From: Takakia lepidozioides
Lineage: Eukaryota; Plantae; Bryophyta
Length of the DNA: 64,000 nucleotides
Direction: 5' to 3'
Assembly: GCA_030704615.1 (NCBI GenBank)
Contig: CM060733.1
Location: 2,232,001-2,296,000 of the forward strand
Positions 14,195 to 64,000 of this stretch are shown in pieces (the stretch's first letter is position 1; each line of letters opens with the position of its first letter). The translations under genes and the position numbers were made by a program. The notes below the pieces were generated by a model. The model saw only the letters and a list, made by a program, of their open reading frames with translations, had not been told where the DNA came from and made no database searches.

Positions 14195-14255
14195 TTATGA
14201 GACGTTTGCCGTAGCCTTGTGGCCATAGACCCTGTGCCTAGCTTGGGCGGAACTG
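14195..14255 (-). mobile_element. Very short 3'-terminal copy of LINE family L-A
   Basis: Reverse complement of GGGTCTATGGCCACAAGGCTACGGCAAACGTCTCATAAGTAC, shared with the copies at ~41010, ~50580, ~53050, ~53780 and ~54445. Confidence 0.7.
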
Positions 14256-22616: not shown

Positions 22617-23213
22617 CTAGCATGAGACGAATGCATATTGAATATTCAGGGGGAGCATGTCTGCTTGGGCATACGCAAAAGAAACAGAACTACTTGTAAC
22701 CATCGGCCCCCCATTGTTGACAAGGCATGAAGTAGTAGTACCGAACCGCCGGAACTCCTTGGGATCCACCAAAGTTGCCGAAAGATTTAGGTCTCCACAA
22801 CTGGCAATGATGTTTGTTATTCTGCAAGCAGGATTTTGGCAAACGTCAACAATTTGCACCTGGTATTGAGGGATGCCCTGTGAATTAAACCTCTTTTCCT
22901 GTGAGACTCTGACGTCGCTTGCAGTGCAACCCTTGGTGAAGTTCGAATCCCTGACCTCCACCCCACCATGAGAGAGAAGCTTACGGTTGGGGCAAGTACT
23001 GACAGTCGACTGCATCACGCCCTTGGCACTTATCTCCACCAGGCGTGTACTGGAGTGGATCGCCACCTCTGTCATCTCCGAAAAGGCATCCTGCTCCACT
23101 GCTAACACCACCTCAGTACTCATGGAGAAAACCACCATGAACATGTAAGAAAAAAGCAGCAGAGCTTGGAGGGAAACAAACTGCACCCGGGTGCAGCTAC
23201 GTCTGGCAGCCAT
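22617..23213 (-). CDS. TPD1-like (tapetum determinant 1 family) secreted Cys-rich protein, intronless
   Basis: Hydrophobic N-terminus and RKLL processing-like site, followed by C...DVRVSQ...GIPQYQVQIVDVC...C...CG...SATLVDPKEFRR...CLVNNG.P...VSFAY...C. Confidence 0.88.
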   Translation of the reverse strand: MAARRSCTRVQFVSLQALLLFSYMFMVVFSMSTEVVLAVEQDAFSEMTEVAIHSSTRLVEISAKGVMQSTVSTCPNRKLLSHGGVEVRDSNFTKGCTASDVRVSQEKRFNSQGIPQYQVQIVDVCQNPACRITNIIASCGDLNLSATLVDPKEFRRFGTTTSCLVNNGGPMVTSSSVSFAYAQADMLPLNIQYAFVSC

Positions 23214-24833
23214 GGGGACTCTTTGAACAGGAGAAAATGGCCGACTGGAACTTCAGCCTTGTGCACAGCCCGTGCACAATAGAACTGAGTCTGCCAATTG
23301 ATGACTTGCCCAGCACCAGATTTCTGCCAACCACTGCTCTCCAGCAATGGTCGCAATCGGGAGATAACGACAAAGTTGACAAAGCTGGTATTGATATGCA
23401 ATCTCTTGAGAACTGTGCACGGCCAATTATAATAGAATAATCGTTGATCCCAATATTAAAATATCAATTGGCTTGGCCTCATACGTCAATGTGTCAACTT
23501 TGTCGTTGGTAGGTTATCAGGGACCCACCCGGTTAATTACAGGTTATTTGTCGGGTAAGGGTAACTATAGCCCCAGGTTATGAGCATAAAAGAGAACAGT
23601 GGACAGTGAACACCGTCATTACTGGACAACTCAAATACCCTGTGAAACACCCTGAACGTGTGAGTGAATAGCATCTCAAGACATAGAACAGACCCCCATA
23701 TCTTTTAAGTGGATGGAAACGGTTATAGTAGCTATGGTTTCGTGGCAAATAGTAGTTTTCTTTTGATGTCCTATTTTCACTATATACATTGAAGTGCACA
23801 TTGAACCTGAGCGATAGGTTCTGCAGGCCTAGGTTCTGCAGCTTACCTAGGGTACTTCAATTATATCCGATGGTAGGCAGGTTATATTTCGGTTATAACA
23901 AAGGCCCGACTTGAAATATCATCACATGTTATGATTTGTTCATGAATTGGCAAATAACCTGACCACAAATATTGTTCAAATTTTCATAACCGTAACCTTC
24001 ATTCAATGTGCATATTTCACCTGGAACAAGAGGTTATTTACTGCACGAGTCAACTTGTATAACGTGAACCTCATGAGAGTTGAAAAAATGAGAACCGACC
24101 AACACTGCCCCATACCACCTCAAAATAGGCTGTGCAATAACATGCCTCAAGAAGAGTGCGAGTGGATGTGACAACCAACGTCCCTGGAAATAATTTCAGT
24201 TGAACCAGCCAGTAGCCGCTCATTCCCAGCAGCAATAGGCTAAGTGGGTTGGGCAGTCGGTTGCTATCCCTTAGTAATAACTATACCTGGTCAATTTCCG
24301 AGATAATGTTGTTACAACTGGTAATATTCCTAATGATTTATTTTGTGTTAGCTATAAATCCGGCCCTTATAAATATCAACCTGTTGACAACACAAGTGTC
24401 AAATGCACAACAATAAATAAATAAATAATAATAAATAATAATCACAACCAGTTTTAAGCAATTCAAACAAGTGAAGAACATTGTATCCTTATAGAAGTTG
24501 GACCTGTCAATGCCTTCAAACCACATGGAGGCCAAGAATTGAACCTGCGTGGACAGGTGAGCTGTGATAGCAGGCAGCGAGTGCAAGCAGGCGTGGGGCT
24601 GGGGCTGCGGAGAGCAACGTCCAGACTTACTAGGGTTTGCCCGCTACCCCGGCCTCTTGAGTTCAATATTTTTTCACCTAAACGCCCTTCCTAGGATGTA
24701 ACCCGGCTTGGCATGTTGGATTTCTGCCATGTGGCGGACTTAGACGGCCATTTCCGTTTTTTGTAATATAAGAAGGGCCGGAATCCGTCCAGGCCTTGCC
24801 AACTAAGGCAGATTTCCTGTCTGTAATGTATTA

Positions 24834-26480: not shown

Positions 26481-27071
26481 CTACCGCGTGCATGAGACGT
26501 GTATAGACTGTATATGCAACGGGAACATGTGTGTCTGGGTATATATAAAAGAAACAGAGCTACCCATACTCATCGGCCGGCCATTGTTAACCAAGCAAGA
26601 TGTAGTCGTGCCCAATCGCTTGAACAATTGGGGGTCCACGAAAGTCGCAGAAGCAAAGTCTCCACAACTAGCAATAACGTCTATTATCTTGCAAGGAGTG
26701 TTGCATAAGTCAATAATCTGCACGTGATATTGGGGGATGCCACTTTCACCAGGCACAGGGAGCTCTTGCTGGGTGATGCTCATGTCGTCTGCAGTGCAAG
26801 GATATTGGGTCAAGGTCCTGACATGCACGCGTAGAAGCTTGCGGGTGGGATAAGACTTAAGCTTGACAGTCTGCAACTCATCTTTGTATGCTGTCTTCTC
26901 CACCAGTTGTGTGGAGTGGATCGCCACCTCTGCGCCCTCCACATTAAAAGAACCCTCCTCCAAGGGCAAAGTCAGCTCATTCACACAGAGAACCATCAAT
27001 AACATGTAAGAAAGAAGCATACTAACTAGAATGGAAGAAAACACTGCACTGAAGCCAAGTTGGGCAGCCAT
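26481..27071 (-). CDS. TPD1-like secreted Cys-rich protein, tandem paralog, intronless
   Basis: Same motif set (RKLL, GIPQYHVQIIDLC, SATFVDPQLFKR, CLVNNGRP, VSFIY). Start taken at MAAQLG (27071). Confidence 0.88.
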   Translation of the reverse strand: MAAQLGFSAVFSSILVSMLLSYMLLMVLCVNELTLPLEEGSFNVEGAEVAIHSTQLVEKTAYKDELQTVKLKSYPTRKLLRVHVRTLTQYPCTADDMSITQQELPVPGESGIPQYHVQIIDLCNTPCKIIDVIASCGDFASATFVDPQLFKRLGTTTSCLVNNGRPMSMGSSVSFIYTQTHMFPLHIQSIHVSCTR

Positions 27072-27704
27072 GGGAATGGAAGAATGGAAGAGCCTAGAAA
27101 TCCAGTAGACTAGAGAGTGGATTGATCTTGCCAATAATCCATTAAATACCCAAGCATGCGCCCCCGCCAGCTACTCTCTAGAAGCAGCCTGAGGCCATGT
27201 AGGAAAAAATCTTCCAGTAATGGCGGCACGATTTCTCCACACGCTTCTTCTCCACTTGCCAAACGGTTAATAGTGGATGTGGATAGCACAGTCTTAAGAA
27301 TATTCTATGCACCTTCTCTTTCCAGGGACGAACGTGAAGGCATCCGTACACGAATCTTCCATACTGGTCCTTACACGGGGGTGGAAAGTGCTGGGGCTGG
27401 GAACGGGCCTCGTCATGGATGAAGAGCCCACCATAGATGAACACTGCTGTCTCTCCCCTTTCTATCCAGATGTGATCCATGACGATGTTACTGAGTTACT
27501 GACTCACTGAGTTTTATTGGCCAATTCTATTGAAGAACTCGTTCTCTGAAATATATGTCACGAGCATGCTCTCATTCCGCCCCTTCATCCAGTGCGTTTA
27601 CCGAGGCATCTAGGGACACCAATGGAATTTTCTCATAGGTTGGCTTTGGATGAGGAGGGGATGGCTTTAGGGTAGGCTACCTTACACATACACATGGGGT
27701 CGGG

Positions 27705-28873: not shown

Positions 28874-29329
28874 GAGCATGGCCAGCAACGGCAATTTCAG
28901 ACGCGCCAACTCCAAAAGTCGTGGCCGACGGTTTCGGGGCTCTTCCCGCGTCCCCGGCAGCACCACCCCACTCCTTAAAGTGCCGGCCGTCTTGCAAATC
29001 CGCTCTTCAAGCACGACATCTAGAATTCCATTGTCGTCCCCGACCCCCCCCCCCATTCCACGGCAACGTCTTATCCGGGCATTGTCGCTCACATGTGCTG
29101 ACGGGTGGCGGGGTAGGTGGCAGGGCCCACAAGTCAACGTATGCATCTCAGTCTGGCACGCATCTCAGCCGTGCGCCTAGTGGGAGGGGGGGTTTTGGCC
29201 GTCAGAGGCTGCCATGCTGCTGGCCTTCACACTAGCTGCCACACTACTATGCGGGCTCCGGGCCAAAAATGGGCTAGTATTATAATGCCGTTGGTGTGTC
29301 TGTTTACCGCGCCACTGTTGGTCATGCTC
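28874..29329. mobile_element. Tourist-like PIF/Harbinger MITE
   Basis: TIRs GAGCATGGCCAGCA / TGTTGGTCATGCTC, with a TAA target duplication on both sides. Confidence 0.8.
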
Positions 29330-29332
29330 TAA

Positions 29333-30476
29333 AAGCATCTCCACCCTATCCACTAAAAACTTAACTGTAAAGCTCCATATAGGGACACCTATTCCATGCG
29401 CTAAATATTATTTTACGTTGCTCTCAATGCATCGACCCACCGCAGATGCGGAAAAGCCAATGTTATATGCCGTCAGGCTCGTTGATGACGACCCCAACGA
29501 AATAGCATGTGGCGGGAAGCTAGATGGGTGTGGATTGTTGGGTTTGTCGAGTATCCAGAAATGCACAGCGGCATTAAGGATACTCGCTTATGGAGTAGTT
29601 GCCGATGTTGTTGATGAGTACTGGAGGTTGAGCGAATCCACTACTATAGAGGCTATGAAGAGATTTGTACATGCAGTTCGTGCCTGTTTTGAGGAAGAAT
29701 TTTTTCGTCAACCAACTGCACAAGACATACAGACTCGGCAAATGCGGATCAATACTACTCGAGGGTTTTCCGGTATGTTTGCCTCTTTAGATTGTATGCA
29801 TTATGTTTGGAAAAACTGCCTTGTTTCTTGGCAGGGCCAGTATCAAGATAAAGATGGAAACCGCAGCATTGTGCTTGAGGCAATTGCATCTCAAGATCTT
29901 TGGATTTGGCACGCCTTCTTTGGGCTGCCAGGCGGAAACAATGACATTAACGTTCAGGATCGCTCTCCATTGGTTGCAAATTTGCTCAAAGGAGAGGCTG
30001 AGAATGTCACCTTCACTATCAACGACAATGTCTACAAGAGGTATTACCTCTTGGCAGATGGCATATATCTCTCTTGGTCCATTTTTGTGCAGACAATTCA
30101 CAAGCCTCAAGACCAAAAGAGGGTGCATTTTGCAATGATGCAGGACTCAGTGAGAAAGGACGTCGAGAGAGATTTTGGTATACTACAGAGCAGGTTTTCA
30201 ATCATACAAAACCCTTCAAGACAGTGGGACGTATACACTATCAAATCTATCATGTTAGCATGTGTCATACTTCATAATATGATAATAGATGACGAGCAAG
30301 ACACTGCTTTTGAAGGCCAATTTGATGAGCACCTAGTAGTGTCCATTCGCAAAGGTCTCAGTTTTGAATCTTATCGTCTAGGTACTGTAGAAATTGAGAA
30401 TCTTGAGCAGTACCACAGATTGAGAAATGACCTCATTGAACACCAATGGGAGTTGAAAGGTGTCACAATGTTTTGA
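29333..30476 (+). mobile_element. PIF/Harbinger DNA transposon with N-terminally truncated DDE transposase (ORF 29418-30476)
   Basis: QKCTAALRILAYG, ASLDCMHYVWKNC, WIWHAFFG...NNDIN, YLLADGIY, RKDVERDFGILQSRF and CVILHNMI. Left TIR-like AAGCATCTCCA follows TAA. Right TIR not found. Confidence 0.9.
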
Positions 30477-30579
30477 TTGTACTCTATCAATAAAGTGTGT
30501 TACTTCATGTGCTTGACATGCATAAAGGATTCGGTTATGAATTATAGGATGCCAAGTGGAATATTTTACGTTTTGTGAG

Positions 30580-31350
30580 GCATATTCACAAATTGGGACA
30601 TAACTTTATGCCAACAAATGAGAATGGAATGTAAGAGGGCTCCTCACATGCCTAGTGAAGCCCCCCACCTACTGCAGTCTTGAGTTTGCACCAAAAACAT
30701 CTCAAAGTCTGATTTGTATAATGCTAAGAGTCAATTTCTAGGTTTTGGAACACATCTTCACAAATTGGGCCATACCTTCATGCCAACAAATGAAAATGGC
30801 ATGTGGGAGGGCTCCCCACCTACTGCAGCCCTCAATTCGCACCAAAAACATCATGAATATTGAATTCCATGATGCTAAGACTCATTTTCTAGGTTTTGGA
30901 ACAGATATTCACAAATTGGGACATATCTTCATGCCAGCAAATGAGAATGGCATGTGGGAGGGCTCTATACATTGGTAGTGAGGCCCCCCACCTACTGCAG
31001 CCCTTAGTTTTCACCAAAAACATCTCAAATGTTGAATTGTATGATGCTAAGACTCATTTTCTAAGTTTTGAAAAATATATTCACAAATTGGGCCATAATA
31101 TCTTCATGCCAACAAATGAGAATGGAATGTGAGAGGGCTCCACACATTTCTAGTGAAGCCCCCTACGTGCTGCAGCCATGAGTTCTCACAAAGAATGTCA
31201 AATACATGGAATGATATGATGCTAAGTTGACACATTGTGGTTTTTGAAGACATACTCACAAACTGGGGCATATGTGTTGATGCCAAAAAAATGACAATGG
31301 CATGGGGGAGGGCTCCACACATTCCTAGTGTGGCCCCCCACCTACCAAGC
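30580..31350. repeat. Tandem array, about 4.5 copies of a ~150-175 bp unit
   Basis: Recurring TCACAAATTGGG...ATGCCAACAAATGAGAATGG...CCCCACCTACTGCAG at ~30585, 30757, 30909, 31081 and 31256. Confidence 0.85.
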
Positions 31351-31755: not shown

Positions 31756-32229
31756 TCTCTCATTCAAATGTGCAATCCACCCTATATTCTGAATCCTCTC
31801 CTTGTGACTCATCAAGGTCTGGGCGATTGCCAGCCTCATGTTGGAATGGCGTGGGGGTGTAGAATTGATCATCAACACGACAGGGAGGAATAAATCGGTT
31901 CGCAGGTCTGAATGCCTCACTTCTGCTCTCTACTGGCTTGAAATACTCTTGGTATGGACGGAAAGAACCTTGGTTTTCTACAATGAACAGTTGATGAAAT
32001 TTTTGAGATAGATTCACAACAAATCTGTTGGACTAGGTTGCTCTGCCAGTGACGGCTGACTTACAGGAATTGGAGCAGTAGTAGGGGGAATAATTGGGGG
32101 AGGATTGGTCTTCGCTTGGGTGACATCGGCAGCCTTCATAGCAGCTTCAACGCCTTCAATACGGAACTTCACCTTCAACAGCTCCTCAGAGGTCGCAACC
32201 TCAAGTATTCAAAATATAAAAAAACAAGA

Positions 32230-32505
32230 TTGGCGGTGGTACTGGCGGTCGATTTATTTTTCGAAAAAAAATAAAAAAAATAAAAAAAATAAAAAATAGC
32301 GACCGCCATATTGGCGGTCGCTTCAATTTATTTTAAAACAAAAGCAAGATTGGTGGTCGCATTGGCGGTCGCCTAATTTAAAAAGAAAACAAGCGACTGC
32401 CGTATTGGCGGTCGCATAATTTTACAAATATATACAGAACAAGCGACCGCCATATGGCGGTCAGATAATTTCAAAAATATATTAAAAAAAACAAGCGACA
32501 TATGA
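32230..32505. repeat. Array of GCGACCGCC-n3-5-GGCGGTCGC palindromes in A/T-rich spacers
   Basis: About 5-6 copies visible directly. Confidence 0.85.
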
Positions 32506-34199: not shown

Positions 34200-34468
34200 A
34201 CAACCGCCACACGGATGATCCCTGGATTTCAAAAAAAATAAAAAACACGCGACCGCCGCATGGCGGTCGTTTAATTCAAAGATTCAAAATAAAAATAAGC
34301 GACCGCCGCTAAATAACGGTCGCTTCATTTAAAAAATATATATTAAGTAAGCGACCGCCAAACGGCGGTCGCTTAATTTAAGAATCAAAATCAAATCAAG
34401 CAACGGCCGCCAAATGGCGGTCGCTGCATTTTTCAAAAATTTACTAAAAAAAAAGACCGCCAAACGGC
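34200..34468. repeat. Second array of GCGACCGCC...GGCGGTCGC palindromes; the last one is interrupted by the gypsy element
   Basis: About 5-6 copies. The last reads GACCGCCAAACGGC|TGTCG (element start). Confidence 0.85.
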
Positions 34469-35151
34469 TGTCGTGCTTATACATATCACTACACAACTAC
34501 ATCGTTGTCCAAAACCACACAACACATGTGCACGCCACACACTAGTATACCACTAGTCCAACCACTAGTCCAACCACTAGGCTATAACTAGTCAGTCACT
34601 AGGCTGCCACTATGCTGCCCACTATGGCAGTCATTAGTCCACACAATGATATAGAAGAATAATACAAGCACAAACTCATGCGAGCTCACAAAGCTGAAGC
34701 ATAAACTCATGCATATATTACCTCATCACTCAAATACAAGTCAAGTCAAGTGCACCCCACGCCATGGGAAATCCACACTACGGTGCCATAGCTAGGTGCG
34801 GTGAGGCTCAACTCGAGAAAGATGAGCCTCTCGCGCTTGCCGTGAAGATAACCACTCCAGGGCCTAAATCCACCTTGACCCCTGGATTGACACTTGAGCC
34901 AATCCTAAATGTCAATATGTAAAAACTAGTTATTTCCTAGCTAGTTTCACACTAGTGGTAAAATAACTTGACAGCTGTCGTGCGCATACATATCGCTACA
35001 CAACTACATCGCTGTCCAAAACCACACAACGCATGTGTACGCCACACACTAGTATACCACTAGTCCACCACTAGTCCAACCACTAGGCTACAACTAGTCA
35101 GTCACTAGGCTGCCACTATGCTGCCCACTATGGCAGTCACTAGTCCACACA
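34469..35151 (-). repeat. Terminal repeat block of gypsy element 1: A (35151-34976) - GC - B (34973-34647) - T - A (34645-34469)
   Basis: Two ~176 bp direct repeats (about 9 differences) flank a ~327 bp unit that matches 58374-58694. Each unit is bounded TG...CA. PPT-like AAGGGGGCGAT at 35162-35152. Confidence 0.85.
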
Positions 35152-35411
35152 ATCGCCCCCTTAGCTGGTGTTTAGGTCCCTCTAAGTCCAGGTAGCCACA
35201 AGATGTGATAGTGACCATAGCCTCACTATGTCCTCTACCACTGTCCCTATTACACTGAAACTCGATAGATCAAGAGGCCGGGTGTAAGAGTTGCCCCATC
35301 GTTAGTCGCCGTCTTGCAACCTGTGAACTTGAGCCTGGGATCTCATGTATTGACTCATATGAGCTTGGCCTCCCATGTCTTGTTAGCTGCCTCTAGTCAT
35401 GTCCACTGCTA

Positions 35412-35560
35412 CTATCCCAAGCAGTGTGGACATAACCAATCTCCATCAGGAACCCTCTCAAGAGGTGGTGTCAAGCATTCCATATGCCAACCTCTTGAGC
35501 ATCGATCACACACCAGCATGGTGGCTGCCCCTTTGGCAGACCCACAGAGCATGCACCTCA
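35412..35560 (-). other. PHD finger at the integrase C-terminus
   Basis: CMLC...MLVCDRCSRGWHMECLTPPLERVPDGDWLCPHC is a C4HC3 PHD. Confidence 0.92.
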
Positions 35561-38500
35561 AACCTGCAAGTACCACTGCCAAGTTTGGGTCAGTTCTGCC
35601 ATCGACATTAGGAAGGTGACATGGCGTACAATTACGCACATGGTCTTTCCAAGTCATGCCATCCCGACCCTCCAAGATCAGGACCCCTGAGGGCAACACC
35701 TCTCGAACCCTCAGAATAACACGCCCTGCAGTAACATCCAGGGTCGTAGGAGCAGTCTGCAGCAAATAAACATAGTCACCAGGACGATATCCTCCACCAC
35801 GTATAGTGGCATACCTCAACGTATCACGGTGTTGTGCAATGGCAAGGTTCTCAAAAGCCATGTGCATGACTTTCTTGAACAACTCTGCACGCTAATCACA
35901 TGCACGTACCCACACGTCCGGATCATCAAGGTTAAGGACTTGAGCAGTGTCCCTACGAACGGCTGCAGGCAAATCCGGCTCTCGGCCAAAGAGAAAGAAA
36001 TATGGTGAGAAGGAGGCAAGTGATGTTTGTTTGCTGAACCTGTAGCCCATGGCTAACCAAAGAACCTGAAGATCCCAATCTCCTAGGTGTCCCTTCTTCA
36101 AGCCATACTTGCGCAAACCCCTCTTCACCGTCTAAACAACTCTCTCTACCAAGCCATTGGCCTCAGGATGATCCCGAGAAGTGGTGCAGTGGTCTATCAA
36201 AGCTTTATCACACAAAGCCTGAAACTCTCCCAAGAACTCTCTTCCTTGGTCCGTGAGTACCTCAGTTGGAGCACCGAATCGGCTAAGCATACAATCCAAG
36301 AATGCATATGCAGCCCCCTCACTAGCCTTATCAGGCAATGGAACCAACTCAATCCACTTGGAGAAGTGCTCCACCATCACCAACACATATCTGTGGTGAC
36401 GCATAGTCAGTGGCAACGGTCCTGCGAAGTCAAGACTCCACCTGTAGCCCAATCCCATGATTGGTAAATGACGCAACTGTGGTGTAGGGGCGTTGAATGA
36501 AGCATGCACCCTATCACACACCATGCACCTAGCCACGAACTGTTGCACCTCTGTATGCATACCACGCCACCAATACTGCCCCTGCAGTAAACTGTGAGTG
36601 CGTCGCACTCCAAAATGCCCCAACTCCTCATGGGCATGCCGCACTAACCGTGCACGCTGTGTGGGGTGAGGCACAATCCTCACCCGACCATCCTCCCATA
36701 CTCGGAGTAGGTGTATCCCCTCCCACTTGAACCTCTTGGTTCGTTGCAAGATCCGATCCCTCTCCTTGGCAGTCACAGTGGCTGCCATGTCTCCAGTACG
36801 GAGGTAGTCCAACACAACCGAATCCTCATGTATATCTCTGGTACCACCTGGCTCATCACTAGCCTAAGGATCCTCAGACACTTTGTCTACAGTCATCCCT
36901 ATTGTAGGTCCAACCTGATCTCCCGATGCCAAGATACACAAAAAGGCAGATGCATGCCATCCCGGCACCATCCCCGCATCCGTCTCACCATGTCACCGAG
37001 CTCCAGTGTCATCCTGCTGGCTTGTGCATGGATTGCGACTCAATCCATCCGCATCCCGATTGACCAAACCCGGTCGATGCACAACCTGAAAGTCATACTC
37101 CTGGAGTATGAGTGCCCACCGTGCAAGCTTCCCCGTAAGCTTGTCTGACTCCATCAACCACTTGAGTGGCTGGTGATCCGTGACAAGGGTGAAAAGATTG
37201 TTGTATAGATAGCACCTGAAGTGTGCCACGGCCCACACTGCAGCTAAGCACTCTCCCTCATATGAGCTGTACTTAGCCTCTGCAGCGTTGTTCGAGCGGC
37301 TAGCATAAGCCACTACAAACTCTCTTCCCTCATCATCCACCTATGTGAGCACCGCTCCAAGCCCCAGCATGCTCCAATCCGTATGCAGCTGAAAAAGACG
37401 TCCCCTGATAGGTCGTCTCAGGATAGGCGTCGAGATTCAACCTCGCCTTGAGCTCTTGAAAAGCTCGTTCCTGCTCATCTTCCCACTGCCACTCCTGGTC
37501 CACTTTGGTCAGCTTGGTTAGAGCCTTTGCAATGGCACTAAATCCCTTGACAAACCGTCTATAATAGTTTGTCAACCCCATGAAAGCTCGAACTCGGCTC
37601 ACATCCGTGGGGCGTGGAATTTGTGCAATGGCCTCTACCTTAGTCTGCTATACCCCCAATTCTCCAGGATATATGATGTGACCCAAATACTCAATCTGGT
37701 TGTGGAAAAACTTGCACTTCCCCGGATGCAACTTCAATCCATGTGCTCTCAAGCGCTCCAATACCACTTGAAGGTGTCTCTCATGCTCCTCCACCGTAGC
37801 ACTAAAGATGATGATGTCATCTATGTAGCACCGAGCAAAGTCCACCCTTGCTAGAATCCTATCCATGACTCTTTGAAACTTTGCAGGAGCGTTCTTAAGC
37901 CCAAATGGTAAGAACCGCCACTGATATAGACAATCCTTGCCGTGCTCATTGATCCCCCAGAATGTCGTCTTCTGCTTGTCCGCCTCCTTGATCGGCAACT
38001 AGTGATATCTGGATCGTAAATCCAAAGTGCTAAAGACCTTAGCATGCCCGATGGCATCAAAGATCTCCTCTGGTGTTGGCATGGCATACTTATCGGACTT
38101 GGTCTGACGATTTACAGGCCGGTAACCACCGCACATACGTCTCTCCGTCCAATTGCCATAGACATCCTTCTTGGCTGACATCACTATGGCTAAAGCATAC
38201 TCTCCACCAGAGAGCTCCACCAAACCTGCCTCCAATAGATCTTGAGTCCTCATCTGAATCAAAGACCTCTCCATGTCACTATATCTATAGGGTCTCCGAA
38301 AGAATGGCGTGTCAGTGGCCAACTCAATATGGATCTCTTGACCCTTCAGTGCTCCCAAGTCCTTCAAACTTAAGGCAAAACAATTTCTGTAAGCCCTCAA
38401 GAACCGCCGTATACGTTGTCTCTCTCCTCCGGTGACAATGGGTCCAATGTCAGGCTCCCAATTGTCCTCCGTAACTGCAACCTTAAGTCCAGTGGGTTTA

Positions 38501-38799
38501 GAGGTAGATGACGCGTCCAGTGGTTGCTATGTTGCATCCTCTTGAGCAGTACTCCCTACCTGCTCAGTCAATGACAAGGCCTCATCCTGCCCCATCATCT
38601 CATCCTCGAGGACTTCCTCAACCCGAGAAAAATCCCCAACCTCATCCATCATCGCCACCTTGGCTGCCAACTCCCTCTGAACCTCGAGCACCTCCCACGT
38701 GTGCCATGGATGCCTGCACCCCGTGGTCCTCTCATGCTCGCCCCCACTCACTGCCTGTACCGTCTCGGTAGGTAGAGAGACCATCGAGGGAAGTGTACT

Positions 38800-39574
38800 C
38801 CGCACTCTTCGTTGCTCAGCCATAGCCAAACTGATAATCCAAGTCAAGCAATTGAGATCCATTGCTTGCCCCAACATCTAACGACGCGATGCCTCAGAAA
38901 GAGACGGCACCGCCGTGGTACCAGTGGTAAAACCCATTGCCCGCTCACGCTCGTCAGCATTAGGCTCCACTAACTGCTGCAACTGAGCATCCCACAGGAG
39001 GCCAGGTCCACTATCCCGGTCCTGGGAAGCTGAGTAGTATAGGTAATGTTGCTCGTGGTTGACCCACCTTGTTGACCACTGCCAAAGGCGAACGGTCATC
39101 GTGTCTCACACGCTGAGACTGCTTCCCTGTGTCCAAAATGCTATCCACTGTGAGGTGTGCTGGCCGCTGCACCCCATCAAATGCACGCTTGAGCAGTGCG
39201 GGTGGCATCAAGTTAGTCCACCATAGCCGTGGACGATGAGCCCGTGACCCCACTGTAGCTGCATCTAGCAACACTGCTGACCCAAGCCACGACCGGACTT
39301 GATGCACACTGGCCATCACCCTGGCCCGAGAATCGCTCATTAGTGGCACATTCTCCAAGATGTATGCTGGAGATACAGCTTGATGAAGCTGCAAGTGGCG
39401 CGAAACCCGCACCATCTCCCAAAACAGACCCGACCTCGAGTCTTGCAATCCATTGTCATGCCCGGCTGATGAATGCTCTTGGCAGGGCCAACCTGCCACT
39501 ACCAGATCAATGGAGCCAACCTGCTCCAAATCATGCGCCCCCAGCTTCCGAGGTGGTATGTGCCCATTATACAA
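38800..39574 (-). pseudogene. DNMT3-like C5 cytosine DNA methyltransferase domain within the gypsy pol
   Basis: Motif IV DLVVAGWPCQ, SGLFWE, motif VI ILENVP, motif VIII HRPRLWWTNL and motifs IX-X ERERAMGF...RR*MLGQAM. Motif I lost by truncation. Confidence 0.88.
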
Positions 39575-39811
39575 CCTGAGAAGGGATATAAAGGAGAGCC
39601 GGGCTCTCTTCCCCTACCTCTTACTATTTACTAAGGGCGCTACCACATGAGCGGCATTGGAAGTCCCCACAACCTGCTAAAGCTGATTGGTCCCGACAAC
39701 AAGAAGGTAATGTGACGTGGTGCTTATGTAGAGCCTCTCCGCGAAAATAGGATTTTCCAGGACTATTGCCTCGAAATAGTCCTGAAAATCCGAAATGTTA
39801 GGGAAACATAT

Positions 39812-40339: not shown

Positions 40340-40900
40340 TCATTTTCCTCTCTGCATCTGTTTATTGTTCAAAGGTAGGCTCCCCGCCCCCAACATAAAT
40401 TTCAGTCCGGTGCCAAGGGTAGGTAGGCCCTTCAGATCATACTTAATGTCCTTGCCCCATGTAATAGACCGGAAACAACTTCAGGGAAGTTTCCACTTAA
40501 CTTCATTTTCATGTTCATTTTCACCTGAGAGTCTTTGGGCCTAAGACATGGCTTTGGACAACCCCCTCCGAATTAACTTCTTCCAATAGAGCCAATTCTT
40601 TTGGCATAACATTCAGATACTGTCTACTCTTCCACCAAGATAGCCTGATTAACAGGACAGTGTTGCTTCCAAGAAATGTTGCCATTTATCTTAGGGCATC
40701 CGGTATTAGGCATGAGATTCAATTGACCCCACCATCCGAACTTGAATTCATCATGTTGAGAGCCCAAAGGAGGTATGCCAAACTCAGCCAAAGCAACCAC
40801 ATCAGCTAGCAATCACATACATGCTTTCTTTGAGGACCATGACCTGAATGGATTCTAGAGATTTAGCATGGTTGGAATTGTCGATGTGTACTTCAACCCC
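40340..40900 (-). mobile_element. LINE family L-A internal fragment
   Basis: Homologous to 49790-50220 (AEFGIPPL...WWGQL...SWKQ; GTGLKF). Confidence 0.7.
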
Positions 40901-40984
40901 GGCCTAATACCATTGCAAGGCATAGTCCTTTTAACTTTAGTACTAATCCCTTTGAAGTGGTGAGACCCAAAGGTTTTGAGTTTA

Positions 40985-41470
40985 ATGTACTCATAAGACG
41001 TTGTTTCCGTAGCCTTGTGGCCATTGACCCCGCGCCTAGTTTGAGCAGAACACAAAGGGACAGAACCTACCTTTTTCAGGGGCTGACGCTAGTTGTAAGA
41101 CTTACCTTGGAATAGACAATTGATCCAGGTTTTCCAGATATCTCTAGAAATCCCTTTACACAGGCGTCAACCTGCTTGTGTGGTTTGCCCAATAACTAGG
41201 CCCCAAAAGAGCCTGGGCTTTTGGCTCAGCCCCGAGAGTTTCAAAGTTGGTAAACAGAGGTACAGGCACAATTTCCTTGATAGATTTGAAGAGAGCGGCT
41301 CTCTGGTGAGAGAACCCTGGACAATGAATCAGAAAATATATTGTCTTCAGGTTGCCCGCACAGCGGGCAATTGCACTCTCCCTTTCGTCTCTGCTTTTGT
41401 TTGCTGTTCAAAGGGAGGCTTCCCGCCTCGATGTCACAGACTGGAAACAAGTTTAGGAGGTTTTCTGCCT
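40985..41470 (-). mobile_element. LINE family L-A 3' fragment (CCHC zinc finger plus tail)
   Basis: GSLPLNSKQ...CPLCGQPED..F..HC, plus the shared 3' terminal motif. Confidence 0.8.
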
Positions 41471-48329: not shown

Positions 48330-55454
<7,125 letters not shown>

Positions 55455-57081: not shown

Positions 57082-58694
57082 GTGATGACTTCTTATGAGA
57101 ACAATGTTCCTTTTGATTGGAAATGTATTTTATGCAAAAAAAATTAGGAACGGTATAAAAACTTAATGCAGACATGATCTGATGGTACTTTCGTCGGATT
57201 TAGGCAGCATGGCAGGCTTCCTATCAAATCTTCCCCACTTTTTTTACTCTGGATTCACTATTAGATATTTTAGAATGCAAGGGATTGTTAGACAGTGATG
57301 AGTAGCCTATTGGTAAGATATTGTTAAGGTGATGGTAGTGGAGGCGATGAGGTAGAAGATTTGATTCTTGATGGGTGGTAGTGTCATCTTTGGCTTCTAA
57401 GGTTAGTGTTACCCCTTTAATGTGTAACTCCTCTTAGTCCATTTTAAACAACCAAATTTGGACTTCGAGACCAAGTGTGAGTTACACCAAGTAGAGTTAC
57501 ACTCATCTGCCGTGTAACCAAGTATAACCTCAAGTGGAGTTACATTCCACACCATGTATCCCGACTGGAGTTTACAATCCATCTTTGTAAACCACTATCA
57601 CCTAGACTGAAGTTACATTCCTTTCAGTTCCATGTCACTCTTAAGACTAGATGGTGGGAAGATTCAATCTGTTGGAAATCGGCCTTCTGTCTTGTTAGAT
57701 ATTATACGTGTGCATAAACTCCATACATTCTTCCTATGGTTCTCTATTTTATGTGTTATTTTGTTACAATCACCTCAGCCAACTTCCCTCATCCCCCCGG
57801 ACACCCACGAACACAACTATGCTTAGTCAGTCCAAACAACCATGAGACCAATGCCAAAGCCACAGCAACCTTGCGTATTTATACATAGCCAGCAATAGAC
57901 AATTCAATCTACACTGGATGTCCCTACAGAGTCGTGACACCTCAAATAGACACATCTCTGAGTCATACTCGGACAACACTGAATCCGCCACATCCCATCG
58001 CGAACTAAGGGCCACGTTTTCAGGCGAAAACGAGGCCACCCCCATTGCAAAGCAGACAGCCTCAAGATCAAAAACTTCCACCAAACACACTGTGAGTTGT
58101 TAGGTGGTGAACATGTCCAGCACTCCAACTAGCTCCAAACGATCCCATGGAGCCACCAGCCATCCTGCGCCACCCTCTTTACAACCGCACGAGTCAATAT
58201 AACCACTTATGGGCACCAATGAGTTACTAGTGCATGCTTCACCTCCAATACCCACCAATACTAAGGGAATTGCACTCCCGCCTCGGCCGCCATCAAACAT
58301 CAATGCAGGGAGCGATCCACCTCCACCAATATAACCCAATGCGCAGAATGCTAGCAATGCAGTACCTAGTGGTTGTCAAGTTATTTTACCACTAGTGTGA
58401 AACTAGCTAGGAAATAGCTATCTTTTACATATTGACATTTGGGATTGGCCCAAGTGTCAATCCAGGGGTCAAGGCAGATTTAGGCCCTGGAGTGGTTATC
58501 TTCACGGCAAGCGCGGGAGGCTCATCTTTCTCGAGTTGAGCCTCACCGCGCCTAGCTATGGCGCCGTAGTGTGGATTCCCCATGGCGTGGGGTGCACTTG
58601 GCTTGACTTGTATTTGAGTGATGAGGTTATATATGCATGAGTTTATGCTTCAGCTTTGTGAGCTCGCATGAGCTTGTATTCTTCTTCTTTATCA

Positions 58695-58710
58695 CTCGAG
58701 AAAGATGAGC
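58695..58710 (+). promoter_or_regulatory. Putative self-priming primer-binding site
   Basis: CTCGAGAAAGATGAGC abuts the LTR-ending CA and is the exact reverse complement of GCTCATCTTTCTCGAG at 58520-58535. No TGG tRNA-type PBS is present. Confidence 0.75.
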
Positions 58711-60219
58711 TCGTATCTGTGAGTGCCAGATACGAGTTAGTTGTAGCACTTGTGGTTTTTGCTTGAGAATGAGAGAAACCAAGTTGTTATGCAAGGAGCA
58801 CCATGGAGCTCTTGGTTGTTAGAAGCGGAGGCGATGTGGGTTATGAGGTGGTAGACCTTGGCATTCGATCTTCAGCTTCAGAGATGAAAGCACCATGTTG
58901 CAGGTAATTCCAGAGCACCTTGATGGTTTCAGATTGTGTACATGCATGAGCAAACACGATTGGGAAGAGGACCAGTCAAGAACAGGTTATAGTGGCTTTG
59001 GTGGCAAAGTGAGAACTGGACTTGGGAATGCGAGCTTCATTGTGTGAAGGATTGCAAGACCAAGCGAAAGGGCTGATTTGGCTTGGGGCAAATCAGTGCA
59101 CTTTGTGGAGTATGGTGAGATTGGGTTTCAATCTCGAGCTTCAGCATTGAGAGGGCTCTTGTCATGGCAAGAGCAGGGCTGGAACAGGAGCTAAGAGGTG
59201 CGGCAAGGCCATGGAATGTGCACCTAGGGTTTCAGAGCTTGGAAGAAGAGCTCTTGCACCACAAGAGAAGTGTCTTGTGGCTGGAAATGTAAGCCTTAGG
59301 GTTTCAGGAGCTTGGCAAAGGCTATGGAGTGCTTAGTCTTGTCTTAGAGAGCATCAAGGAGCCAAGGAGCCAAGATAGGGGGCTGATATCTCTTGTGTGA
59401 AGAGGTTGCATGTGTGGAGCATGTATTCAGCTCATTGAAGCTTCCATCTTCAAGCTTGGAGGGCAAGCAAGGAAGAGGGAAGGGCTGACTTCCCTTATGT
59501 GAGGGCAATGTATGTGTGGAGCATGCTATCAGCCTGGTGAAGGCTTGCACTTTTAGGTGTGGGAGTGCAAGAAAGGAAGGAAGGGCTGGTTTCCCTGTAG
59601 GGCATGGTAGAGCATGCTTTCAGCCTGCTGAAGCTTGTATTATCAGGTTTGTGGGTGCAAGAAATGAAGCAAAGGAGCTGATTCTCTTATGGTGAGAGTG
59701 GGGCATGTGTGGAGCATGCCTTCAGCCCATTGAGGCTCTTGTTTTCAAGCCTTAGAGAGCTAGAACAGAAGGTCTAGGGCTGGTTTCCACTTGGAGTGAA
59801 AGAACAGCACTTGTAGGGCCTATGTGAGTTGGGGTTTCAACTTCAAGCTTGAAGGGAGCGCAACTCTTGAAGCAACAGGTGTAGAGGGCTGGAAAGGCTC
59901 TAAGACAGATGCTATGGCCAATGAGAGTGCTTGAATGAGTGCTCACAAGGGCTGGGAACCAGCAGGGCTTGGTTGTTTGCCATTGAGTTTAGTGGCGTGT
60001 TTGGGGAGGCTAAGTGAGAAAGAAGGCTTGGTTTGTGGCAACCACCTCATGGCTTAGGGCTACTATGGTGGTGTGTGGGAGCCGAAAGAGCAAGGATACC
60101 TTGCTGATTTCCTCACAGCCACCATAGCTCGGTGGAAAGAAGCCTAGAGTCCAAGAGACACAAACCCTAGCTTGGCGTGGCTAAACCCCTTGGAGAAATG
60201 GCTAAACTGCCAGAGCGGC

Positions 60220-61340
60220 CATGTGTGGGGCTGTGACAGGCTGTGGAAGCTGTGTCAGGCTGTGACTCTGTGAGGGCTGTGTCAGGCTGTGTGGCGAGCT
60301 GTGAAGGGCTTGTGACGGGCTGTGCCCAGTGGCCTTGTGGGGCTGTGACGGGCTGTGATGGGCTGTGGCAGGCTGTGTGCCCAAGCTGTGACAGGCTGTG
60401 ACAGGCTGTGAGGCTGTGATGGGCTGTGACAGGCTGTGCCCTGTGCCCTGTGGGCTGTGTCAGGCTGTGACAGGCTGTGCCAGTGGCCTTTGGGGCTGTG
60501 ACGGGCTGTGCGGGGCTGTGACCGGCTGTGCCCATGGCCTTGGGGGCTGTGACAGGCCGTGCCCCTGGCCTTTGGGGATGTGTGACGGGCTGTGAGGGGC
60601 TGTGACAGGCCATGCCTGAGGCCTTTGAGGCTGTGTGGGCTGTGAAGGGCTGTGAGGCTGTGTGACAGGCTGTGCTGTGAGGCTGTGGGGCTGTGACGGG
60701 CTGTGCAGGCTGTGGCGGCTGTGACGGGCTGTGACGGCCGTGCCTGAGGCCTTTGAGGGGCTGTGACGGGCTGTGAGGGGCTGTGACAGGCCGTGCCCAT
60801 GGCCTTTGGGGCTGTGACGGGCTGTGAGGGGCTGTGACAGGCCGTGCCTGAGGCCTTTGGGGCTGTGACGGGCTGTGAGGGGCTGTGACAGGCCGTGCCC
60901 ATGGCCTTTGGGGCTGTGACGGGCTGTGAGGGGCTGTGACAGGCCGTGCCCATGGCCTTTGGGGCTGTGACGGGCTGTGAGGGGCTGTGACAGGCCGTGC
61001 CTGAGGCTTTGAGGCTGTGATGGGGCTGTGGCAAGCCGTGTGGACGGCTGTGATGGGGCTGTGATGGCTGTGACAGGCTGTGCCCTGTGCCTGTGGCTGT
61101 GACGGGCTGTGAGGGGCTGTGACAGGCCGTGCCCATGGCCTTTGGGGCTGTGACGGGCTGTGAGGGGCTGTGACAGGCCGTGCCTGAGGCCTTTGGGGCT
61201 GTGACGGGCTGTGAGGGGCTGTGACAGGCCGTGTGCCTTTGAGGGCTGTGACTGTGACTGTGAGGGGCTGTGACAGGCTGTGAGGGGCCAGGCTGTGAGT
61301 GGCCTGTGGGACTGTGACGGCTGTGACCAGTGAGCTGTGT
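60220..61340. repeat. GCTGTGA-based minisatellite with a 51-bp higher-order unit, inside the element leader
   Basis: GGGCTGTGACGGGCTGTGAGGGGCTGTGACAGGCCGTGCCCATGGCCTTTG repeated in tandem. Confidence 0.92.
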
Positions 61341-62063
61341 GGGCCTGTGCTGGTCTGTGGTGGCCCGTGTTGACCTGTGGACGGCCTGTGCTGACTCGTG
61401 GAGGCACTGGTGGACTGCCTAAGGACTGGCATGTGGTCTGGAAGGCCGAATTTTGAAGCTCGTGGAGGGCGGTTTGAGGAGTATCTTCATGATATTCCCA
61501 TGGTCATGCAAGTGAGGATAGAGAGGAGAGGCAGAGTGTTGGGATGAGAGCATGCTGGGGTTAGGCATTGCTTTAGCTTCTCTTCCTCGTAGTTTCCACC
61601 CTCTCATTAGGCCAAGACCTTTCCGTAGGTGGAGGCAAGAGTCAGTCCGGGTTTGGGCTGGGGTGTCCTTGCAGGAGCAACACCGTGGAGTTGTTTTTGG
61701 TGTGGGGGAGTTGTCGTCTGATTTCTTGTGTTTGGATCCCCTCCATACCTGCATGCTTGACTGTGCGCCATGCTAGTTTTGTGTGGGCGCTTGTTTTTAT
61801 AGGTGATTGGTCCGGATTTGATCACCGGCCAGTCCTAGAGCATGCTGTCGATGGTGAGGCTGGGGTGATGACCAGCCAGACCATCATTGTTTCTCCTGTG
61901 GTGAGGTTGGAGGTGATGACCAGCCAACCATAGGAGTGCTTGCGGTGGATGCAGGTACAGGTGTAGGCTATGTTAGGAACTTAGTATTCCAAACCATAAG
62001 CCGCAACAGGTTCTCTACCCGGTTACCTTGTGGAGAGGGGGTTAGGGACATGTTCATGACCGG

Positions 62064-63495
62064 TTGAGTGTCAACACGGAGGTGCCACTAGTTGCTGGGG
62101 ACAGTGCCGGTTCGAGCACTAGCGATACTAGTGGGTACACGAGACGAGGTGTGCGGTTTAGGCCACCTTCACCTCCTGTGTCTTCCACGGAAGGTTCTGA
62201 TTCGGATTGTGAATCAGGAGGACTCATACCGGCGGTGCAAGTTGTTTCTTTGCCATTGTTGTGGGACACAATGGAGGAGATGTATGGAGCTACCAAGGGC
62301 CACGAAGGTACTCTGGGGCGGTGGGCACCATCGAGTTGGATGATTTTATCCAAGAGTTTGATAGTTGGTGTGATTTGCAGCAAATGCGCAATCCACAACT
62401 ATTTACGCCTTTCATGGCATGGAAGGGGCTGTTTCAGCACCTTGAGGGCCGCCTATGGATGATTACCATGAGTTCAGGCGGGGGCATGAGGTTGAGATCG
62501 AGGAGTGGAGGATGTACTGGTCACCCGACTATGTCTCCATCACTAGGGGCACTAGAGCCACGAGGGCAGTGGCTACACCTGCCGCTGCACCGGCAGCTTC
62601 AGCAAGCAGCAGTGGGACTGGTGGTACAGTAGCTACGACGTCCACCCAAGCCACTACCGCACCAGCACTAGCACCCGTGCCTGCCTTCAACCCTGTTGTG
62701 GAGTTCTTCGAAGAGTTGAGAGGGAACTACCAAGGGGTGAGGACAGAGAAGTTGCGGAGCTTGCAAGAGTTCCAACGGAAGCCGACCGAGAGCTTGAGGG
62801 AGGCTTTCACTCGCATGAGGCGCTTGATAAATGTAACCCAAGGGGTTACGGAAGCTCAGGCAGTCCAATTCTGGTATGGGATATTGGACAAGGAGCTGAG
62901 GAGAAGGGTGCGGGATGCAACTCTCCTACAAGCGGCCCAACCCACCTTAGCAAATGTGTTTTTGCTGGCAGAGCGGATAGAGCTCAACATGGTGGAGGAA
63001 CGAGTGGTCATGGTGGGATTTGCTAAGGAGACACCACGGGGTAGTGGTGCTCCTAGCCAACCACTACCTCAACGTGCTCAAGGCAACAAGGGGGCTCAGG
63101 TGAAGCTCAGGGAAGGGCAGAGAGGACCTCAGATGCAGGGGTCTCTCCCTTCATTTGCTGGCCAACAACGGGCGGATGTGGTGTGCTGGACATGTGGAGG
63201 ACCCCATGTCAAGAAGGATTGTCCAGAGGGAGGCAAAGGGCCGGCACATGCACAGCCTGCACAGTTACAGTGTGGGCATTGTGGCAAGCACGGGCATGGA
63301 GAGGCTCAGTGTTATGGTTTGCATCCTGAGTTGCGCCCAGGCCAGTTCCAAGGGAACAATGGTGGCCGGGGGCGAGGTGGAGCAGCCCAGAGGGACGAGG
63401 TGGCCAGCCACGAGGCCAAGGGCAAGCTCAACGTGGCCAAGGACGCGGAGGTCAGGGTGTTGACCAAGGCATGGCCAACCGGCTTCAGCAGCTAG
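62064..63495 (+). CDS. Retrotransposon Gag with two CCHC-type zinc knuckles (frameshifted)
   Basis: RRYSG...LDDFIQEF, FQRKPTESLREAFTR, CWTCGGPHVKKDC and CGHCGKHGHGEAQC. Frameshifts near 62260 and 62450. Confidence 0.82.
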
Positions 63496-64000
63496 AGCAG
63501 AGGCTCGCTGCCATGGCTACAGCTCAGGTGGTACCGGCTCTAAGGCCGGATGGTCCACCTCCTGCTCCTGAGGGAGGAGATATGGGAGGCATGGGATTCA
63601 TGTGTGGAGCAGCACTACCACTAGTGCAGGTGGAGTCTGCTGCAGCCGTGACTCGAGGAGCAGCACGAGTTCCTGAGCCACGAGGTGCAGAGGTGGAGTT
63701 GGATCCACAGCGTGGGGAGGCAAGCCGTCAGGCTAGGCTTCCTCAGTCATTCACATTGGCGGAGACAGTGTCGACGCCATCCATGGCACCTAGTTCTCGC
63801 CCGACTGTTACCGAGGCGGAGGTTACTATGCCATTGGGGAGAGCTACACGGGTAGCACCACTACCTAGTGTTGCCAAGGCTACGGCAGCTAGTGTGCTGC
63901 TAGGAGCGGCCACATCTGTGTGCCAGGCTCCATTGTTCTCGGCTACCATGATTGCGACGCCGGGGGTAAGACCAGCTGAGGTGTTCAGGCTGGCAGCTAC

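Follow-up and report, generated by a model that had tools for sequence, protein, structure and literature searches.

A predicted self-priming signal and a split terminal repeat in a methyltransferase-bearing Ty3/Gypsy retrotransposon of the moss Takakia lepidozioides

We analysed 64,000 nucleotides of the genome of the moss Takakia lepidozioides (GenBank assembly GCA_030704615.1, contig CM060733.1, positions 2,232,001 to 2,296,000 of the forward strand; this whole stretch is called the window, and coordinates below are those of the window). It holds copies of a Ty3/Gypsy retrotransposon that is laid out as A-body-B-A-B, with a long terminal repeat (LTR) split into two parts, A and B. Directly behind the first A lies a primer binding site (PBS) that is complementary to a stretch of that same A, and it is highly probable, judging from the sequence, that the element's own RNA primes reverse transcription in the manner of Tf1 and without a tRNA, from a predicted RNA start. 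A priming signal fixes the ends of the cDNA, and the inserted copies of this family end elsewhere, on either side of the centre of a palindrome that lies within the LTR. We propose that self-primed cDNA is joined end to end and then cut by the integrase in the middle of the LTR, a route that, taken as a whole, we think reasonably likely.

Pairing of the primer binding site with the element's own repeat

The copy on the plus strand carries the following features around its primer site.

58374..58694, plus strand: repeat unit A1 at the 5' end of the element, TG...CA, 321 bp; putatively the promoter-R-U5 part of the split LTR
58496..58501, plus strand: TTATCT, a weak TATA-like element 28 nt upstream of the predicted RNA start; function putative
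58511..58551, plus strand: hairpin over the predicted start, which would block primer pairing if the RNA began at or before 58511
58524..58535, plus strand: predicted self-primer, the first 12 nt of an RNA with a predicted start; in the window copy the complementarity reaches 58520
58536..58606, plus strand: predicted R stem, TTGAGCC at 58536-58542 with GGCTTGA at 58600-58606; family 2 (defined below) has kept both arms
58616..58697, plus strand: predicted U5 stem, 58616-58626 with 58687-58697, which closes at the terminal CA and competes for the first three PBS bases
58695..58706, plus strand: PBS, flush with the CA and without TGG
58708..58738, plus strand: leader stem of 10 perfect base pairs (58710-58719 with 58727-58736), or 12 with a G-U pair
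58739..62270, plus strand: long leader of 3.5 kb

A preliminary description of this DNA had reported that 58695-58710 is complementary to 58520-58535, and the match is exact: CTCGAGAAAGATGAGC is the reverse complement of its target at 16 of 16 positions, and one further pair, A58694:T58536, extends it inward. The PBS adjoins the terminal CA of the repeat with a spacer of zero; for Tf1-type priming, PMC6317226 gives a complement of at least 10 nt inside the 5' repeat. When the repeat was shuffled 20,000 times with its dinucleotides preserved, no complement of 12 nt or more arose; the longest was 11 nt. In the real window, perfect complements of at least 16 nt lying no more than 321 nt upstream start at 10 of 63,659 plus-strand positions, in four places including the primer site. 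Since local inverted repeats also occur elsewhere in the window, what carries the argument is that the PBS directly adjoins the terminal CA and that the pairing is conserved.

The hairpin around the target and the perfect 10-bp stem behind the PBS are both present as described earlier. What had been called the 5' LTR, at 58374-58694, is not a complete LTR but one of its two parts, A. A second copy of the target is intact, at 34812-34827, one base from where it had been placed; it lies in the A unit in the middle of the B-A-B block that closes another copy of the element on its 3' side, and consequently no primer site follows that unit.

A scan of metagenome contigs gave 87 related stretches, of which 80 were kept (loci with names of the type L001), most of them belonging to what we call family 2. 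The family-2 PBS, CTCAAAGAACTA, differs from that of the window at 6 of 12 positions, a count taken by anchoring the window directly on copy L042, since MAFFT put the R stem of the window copy and the first three bases of its primer in the wrong place. Each of the two sites pairs 12/12 with its own repeat, only 6 Watson-Crick pairs remain when they are cross-paired, and the 3' end of the primer falls at the same place in both, directly before TTGAGCC. The distant relative L069 shares 4 of 12 PBS letters with the window, so that 8 differ, and forms 12 of 13 pairs with its own repeat; here an 11-nt match occurred in 46 of 20,000 shuffles. When 11 copies were aligned, 95% of the cells paired, falling to 31-56% after the partners were slid, and 4 of 11 primer:PBS pairs had changed on both sides. 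These rows are kin, and thus stand for about three independent lineages rather than eleven. A lack of conservation across copies had been set out beforehand as a result that would speak against the signal; what is found is complementarity kept in three families while the letters change. Such compensatory change supports predicted self-priming in a Gypsy lineage outside Tcn1, the clade of seed-free plants considered at the end of this text.

The position of the RNA start can be narrowed by natural variation. In contigs of public runs (X1, X2, X3 and X5), whose depths are not copy numbers and whose variants are only those listed, G58707 of the PBS reads C in 22%, 23% and 42% of the depth in X1, X3 and X5, and its partner at 58523 shows no change among the listed variants; the only variant listed in the primer is G58533A (1.4% in X1). 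Because the PBS varies at 58707 without a listed partner change, a start near 58524 is favoured over the one near 58520 that had been proposed earlier, and, with a leader stem that can reach back to 58708, the sequence suggests a 12-nt duplex of 58524-58535 with 58695-58706. The predicted start is an A that follows a C, and transcription starts generally obey a pyrimidine-purine initiator rule. Of 15 family-2 copies that could be anchored, 13 have TATAAA, TATAAG or TATAG at -31/-29 of the 11-nt primer; two more could not be anchored. Pairing in that family was counted on 13 copies left from 18 tried, damaged ones included, after setting aside L022 (unmapped), L009 (other sequence after the CA) and the duplicates L018, L039 and L047. 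The earlier suggestion of self-priming has therefore gained covariation across families and, in family 2, a TATA box that precedes the predicted start by 29-31 nt, and it is still to be read as a prediction.

In a computed fold of RNA beginning at 58524, the outer nine primer:PBS pairs have probabilities of 0.81-1.0. In the leader stem, G58719A (14.5% in X1) and C58727T (16%) occur at similar depth and together would turn the loop-closing pair from G-C to A-U; for the T58714A/A58715G pair (about 11% of the depth), a partner change is absent among the listed variants.

Split repeat, insertion ends and a proposed route

The remaining parts of the element are distributed over the two copies as follows.

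62271..64000, plus strand: Gag and the following polyprotein, frameshifted, running off the window
34469..34646, minus strand: repeat unit B2, 178 bp, ending ...GACA; 3' terminus of another copy, which is truncated on its 5' side; the depth falls to about 900 beyond B2
34647..34973, minus strand: repeat unit A2 (copy 1 of the preliminary description), 327 bp, joined directly to B2
34970..34979, no strand: palindrome GACA-GC-TGTC at the B1|A2 joint, putative integrase attachment site; its central GC (34974-34975) is missing from the element ends
34976..35152, minus strand: repeat unit B1 of 177 bp, immediately preceded by the polypurine tract
35153..35162, minus strand: polypurine tract AAGGGGGCGA
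35412..36890, minus strand: DDE integrase (H2C2, rve) with a terminal PHD finger and in-frame stops
36930..38472, minus strand: Ty3/Gypsy-like reverse transcriptase and RNase H, with stops and one frameshift
38689..39586, minus strand: C5 cytosine DNA methyltransferase domain, broken

The layout follows from 34469-35162, which reads polypurine tract, B1, GC, A2, B2. In the window it is pieced together from two copies, and it is present whole in L022 and L025. The two pieces are assigned to one family because Marchantia P0064 and Sphagnum P0108 each hold Gag and methyltransferase within one protein, and because L025 has all domains between one pair of target duplications. A1 and A2 share 306 of 321 aligned positions and differ in addition by a 6-nt indel. 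The Ty3/Gypsy assignment rests on Gag, the order reverse transcriptase-RNase H-integrase, a Ty3-like reverse transcriptase and the purine tract, with the whole order seen in L025. The PHD finger behind the integrase was matched at E 2e-11, and no chromodomain was matched there at E up to 0.1. Two other interpretations of the repeats, a solo LTR with a 180-bp duplication and a TRIM, were tried and rejected.

The ends of the insertions can be read from the joints. At 58374 the family depth rises from 0-27 to more than 300,000, and unlike flanks join there. Unlike flanks also join at 34973, the TG of A (18 contigs in X1 and 18 in X2), and at 34976, the CA of B (38 contigs in X1 and 31 in X2). Copies thus begin at A's TG and finish at B's CA, the two halves of the palindrome; its central GC is retained on neither end in the public-run contigs, and depth collapses beyond B2 and before A1. 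Target duplications of 4 bp (TCTC, AAGG, TGTG and CACA) flank A-start and B-end in all four relatives that have both ends, a fifth being without its 3' end. L059-L061, L070, L074 and L075 have no usable ends, and terminal repeats were not seen in L019, L027 or L063.

The two kinds of internal joint behave differently. At the B|A joint the sequence is constant: 5/5 family-2 copies read CA-GC-TG or CA-AT-TG, and CA-GC-TG recurs in the distant L068, L069 and L073. The A|B joint is irregular, with four forms in five distinct family-2 copies (G, A, A, a 22-nt insert and a 16-nt insert), and the 16-nt insert begins with 9-10 nt of the PBS. Irregular joints with primer remnants are a feature of end-joined LTR circles. 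Some copies (L013, L017, L035 and L048) end in B only. L035 and L062 have a common 3' flank, which shows that recombination between B1 and B2 occurs after insertion; B-only ends can therefore arise after insertion, and we rejected A-body-B copies as proof of one-LTR circles.

How might a self-primed element come to insert through the middle of its LTR? In the route that we propose, RNA would start near 58524 and its 5' end would pair with 58695-58706. RNase H, whose domain is recognised in the sequence, would cut near 58535/58536 and free the primer, as in Tf1. The self-primed minus strand would then jump to A2, and the plus strand would begin at the purine tract before B, which makes the full LTR B+A and the linear cDNA BA-body-BA. 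The right end of this cDNA would be A's CA and its left end the start of B, and joining of these ends would create the A|B joint. The DDE integrase would make a 2-nt staggered cut at the B|A palindrome to yield two CA-3' ends with GC overhangs; CA-3' ends with short overhangs are the normal substrate of DDE integrases. Insertion of the opened molecule would give A-body-B-A-B with a short target duplication. HIV-1 integrase is reported to cleave the palindromic two-LTR junction in vitro (PMC1905944). The broader proposal, that a widespread Gypsy lineage of green plants has moved its attachment sites from the cDNA ends to an LTR-internal palindrome and uses the joined molecule as its normal precursor, is one that we favour by a small measure.

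Several observations weigh against self-priming or the route built on it. The TATA-like box of the window itself is weak. In the fold from 58524 the R and U5 stems take over the bases of the last three primer:PBS pairs, which are left with a probability of at most 0.01, and the modelled cut site is consequently not a simple duplex. The 11-nt boundary in family 2 is soft, since position 12 pairs in 4/13 copies, position 7 in only 8/13 and positions 13-20 in 6-11/13; these copies are also kin, L035 and L066 being one insertion. The joined molecule has two equal palindromes, which leads one to expect A-B-A-body-B copies as well, but B precedes A1 in 0/13 distinct family-2 5' ends, and only one palindrome seems to be used. 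The target duplications come from relatives, the window having two incomplete, broken copies, and the RNA start, the primer cleavage and the cDNA are all predictions from sequence.

Alternative explanations and neighbouring sequences

An alternative that would preserve self-priming, and which we regard as unlikely, dispenses with a free circle: the integrase would cut the linear cDNA at its left B|A palindrome and the freed B would be joined to the right end, or a head-to-tail cDNA dimer would serve as substrate. It would explain why only A-body-B-A-B is seen and A-B-A-body-B is missing from the 13 5' ends, and the observed ends, the target duplications and the irregularity of the A|B joints are compatible with it too. 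It also requires that, in most copies, the freed B fragment be retained and reattached the right way round, for which we know of no precedent. L069 (positions 1-1646) speaks against it as well, with B-A-B-A directly before the PBS, though this block stands at the contig start and may be a tandem insertion, an alternative cut product or an assembly effect.

It has also been suggested that the hairpin over the predicted start forms a structural switch, in which the choice of start site turns priming on or off: RNA from upstream of about 58516 would fold the 58511-58551 hairpin and hide the primer. Folding in silico is indeed bimodal. For 5' ends at 58500 or 58511 the hairpin has a probability of 0.99 and primer:PBS pairing one of 0.002-0.006; pairing reaches 0.22 for a 5' end at 58516 and 0.71-0.73 from 58518 to 58524. 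A similar hairpin encloses the primer in family 2, and in the fold of a read-through B1-A2-B2 RNA the primer copy in A2 sits in the same hairpin. This part of the suggestion stands as a computed property. The left arm, however, lies upstream of the predicted start, an upstream start is an assumption, and the left-arm variants listed in X1 (G58517A, 8% of the depth, and G58517T with A58518G, 7%) break hairpin pairs without listed compensation. A plainer role is that the hairpin may mask the spare primer copy in A2, or it may act as DNA. The switch can coexist with self-priming, and we hold it to be rather doubtful.

A host tRNA, half-tRNA or other small RNA could in principle be the primer, with the LTR:PBS pairing being only structural or a by-product of a repeat rich in hairpins. 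The primer region is strongly structured (z -9.2; the relatives L042 and L069 have weak scores of -0.9 and -1.7), and local complements of at least 16 nt lie at three other places in the window. The TGG with which tRNA primer sites start is not seen after the CA, where the PBS starts with CTC in the window, CTC in family 2 and CTA in L069, and three families have three PBSs, each matching its own repeat. ARAGORN found no tRNA gene in the window or in the 52 of 80 metagenome loci that were scanned, and an Rfam search over 58300-59000 gave only two matches, at chance level (E 6-8). In the plant survey of PMC6317226, as far as it is cited here, half-tRNA priming is confined to Ty1/copia lineages. 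We consider priming by a host RNA improbable, and self-priming the far better reading of the PBS.

That the B-A-B block is a nesting or recombination accident of two unrelated LTR elements, with A an ordinary LTR, would accord with the B-only 3' ends and the B1xB2 recombination described above, but it is largely refuted and has very little probability left, because a second family shares the layout, with target duplications flanking A...B, because contigs from the species of the window cross the block at high depth (T34652A, 50 contigs in X1), and because this layout is also given for KnitGypsy-Dnmt3 (PMC5890265).

Named relatives of the element come from Marchantia, Calypogeia and Sphagnum, and the window's Gag and following polyprotein are 83% identical to Marchantia P0064 over 54 aa and 51% over 318 aa. 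Many 'hypothetical' genes of Marchantia polymorpha (P0057, P0059, P0060, P0062, P0064 and others) are copies of the methyltransferase retrotransposon. In a more distant group (L059-L061, L068-L070, L073-L075 and P0109), the methyltransferase follows the reverse transcriptase and precedes the integrase, unlike the order in the window. A scan of viral contigs gave 17 loci with short, weak methyltransferase matches. The leader of the window copy contains a tandem array at 60228-61288 (10-bp unit, about 104 copies, 51-bp higher order), the family-2 leader is only about 1.1 kb long, and six-frame Pfam searches of window 58695-60230 and of the L025 leader gave no match.

Other repeats lie around the minus-strand copy. 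A 150-bp inverted repeat (27726-27875/39816-39963, 90% alike) is found where this copy is truncated and has no match to L025. Palindrome arrays of CGACCGCC...GGCGGTCG, spaced 43-102 bp, occupy 32217-32487 and 34215-34473; the 3' end of the copy abuts one of them, and they are possibly subterminal repeats of a DNA transposon. An open reading frame (ORF) for a Harbinger-type transposase lies at 29286-30476 (Plant_tran, E 1e-81), followed by 175/323-bp tandem repeats at 30538-31345. A dispersed repeat family in both orientations (14204-14253, 40366-41401, 49685-50607 and 53027-54499) has a common motif of 40-50 bp and a translated stretch that resembles what we take to be a zinc finger at the ends of long interspersed nuclear elements. 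Two tandem ORFs with TPD1 domains lie on the minus strand, 3.9 kb apart (22617-23252 and 26481-27170), and the named top matches of the window's TAF8 are moss and liverwort proteins with 52-59% identity.

Comparison with known systems

The closest mechanistic parallel is with Tf1 and Tf2 of Schizosaccharomyces pombe and with Tj1, in which the PBS is likewise complementary to a stretch of the 5' repeat (PMC7175516, PMC4600332). The Tf1 primer is 11 nt long and is released by an RNase H cut between bases 11 and 12 (PMC7175516), close to the 11-13 nt predicted here, and both systems have predicted stems inside the loop. The start and the cut are proven for Tf1 and predicted for the window family; Tf1 also has two ordinary LTRs, whereas in the window family the repeats are split and a methyltransferase and a PHD finger are present.

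Among plants, self-priming is predicted in PMC6317226 for 83% of 1500 Tcn1 elements of mosses and club-mosses in REXdb and for TAR, and a self-priming signal alone is therefore already of a known kind. Tcn1 elements are, like the window family, Gypsy elements of seed-free plants, and they are described there as having a chromodomain (100%), a 5-bp target duplication (100%) and two LTRs. The window family has instead a PHD finger with no chromodomain match, 4-bp duplications in its relatives, a methyltransferase and the A-body-B-A-B layout; by these clade features we set it apart from the Tcn1/Tf1-sushi chromoviruses. Self-priming is proven in fission yeast, and a predicted case outside Tcn1 suggests that it either is more widespread or arose separately. 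Phygy, a moss non-chromovirus with a tRNA-Trp PBS and an NCGN target preference, was also rejected as a home for the family, in view of the missing TGG and of the duplications TCTC, AAGG, TGTG and CACA.

The proposed cut has a counterpart in retroviral two-LTR circles, where integrase likewise cuts a palindrome of two attachment ends (PMC1905944). There the palindrome is the end-to-end junction and its cleavage a side activity, whereas in the window family it lies inside the LTR and is apparently the normal insertion point. If the route is correct, a DDE integrase routinely inserts end-joined cDNA through an internal palindrome, the two-LTR circle that is a dead end for retroviruses is here the true integration precursor, and the question of LTR circles as precursors becomes directly testable.

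DIRS, PAT and Ngaro elements integrate by a tyrosine recombinase, through a joined intermediate at the B|A joint. They have the same A-coding-B-A-B layout (PMC5890265). The window family differs from them by its DDE integrase and its purine tract, by ends of the form TG...CA and, in relatives, by target duplications of 4 bp; membership was rejected because an rve integrase is present and no recombinase was matched in the regions scanned, among them the L025 leader and window 58695-60230. If the route is correct, the layout converges on that of the tyrosine-recombinase elements DIRS/PAT, and standard LTR finders would miss the lineage. REM1 and Gypsy-7a_cRei, the latter described with a PHD finger and 'LTR subparts', may be relatives. 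A search of the open literature, with subscription papers mostly outside it, found no paper on self-priming, mid-LTR integration or bryophyte occurrence of this lineage.

The nearest described element is KnitGypsy-Dnmt3 of Klebsormidium nitens, which also has a C5 methyltransferase in a Gypsy Pol and DIRS-like A-coding-B-A-B repeats; PMC5890265, as far as it is cited here, gives no priming or integration mechanism for it. Klebsormidium P0098 has the same domain order as the window element, with identities of 42% in the methyltransferase, 41% in the reverse transcriptase and 48% in RNase H-integrase, and by this similarity the window methyltransferase appears akin to the KnitGypsy-Dnmt3-type enzyme. 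The hosts differ, Klebsormidium in the one case and land plants in the other. A review describes methyltransferase-bearing retrotransposons as absent from land plants such as tracheophytes (PMC6338049); contrary to that statement, such elements are shown here in land plants.

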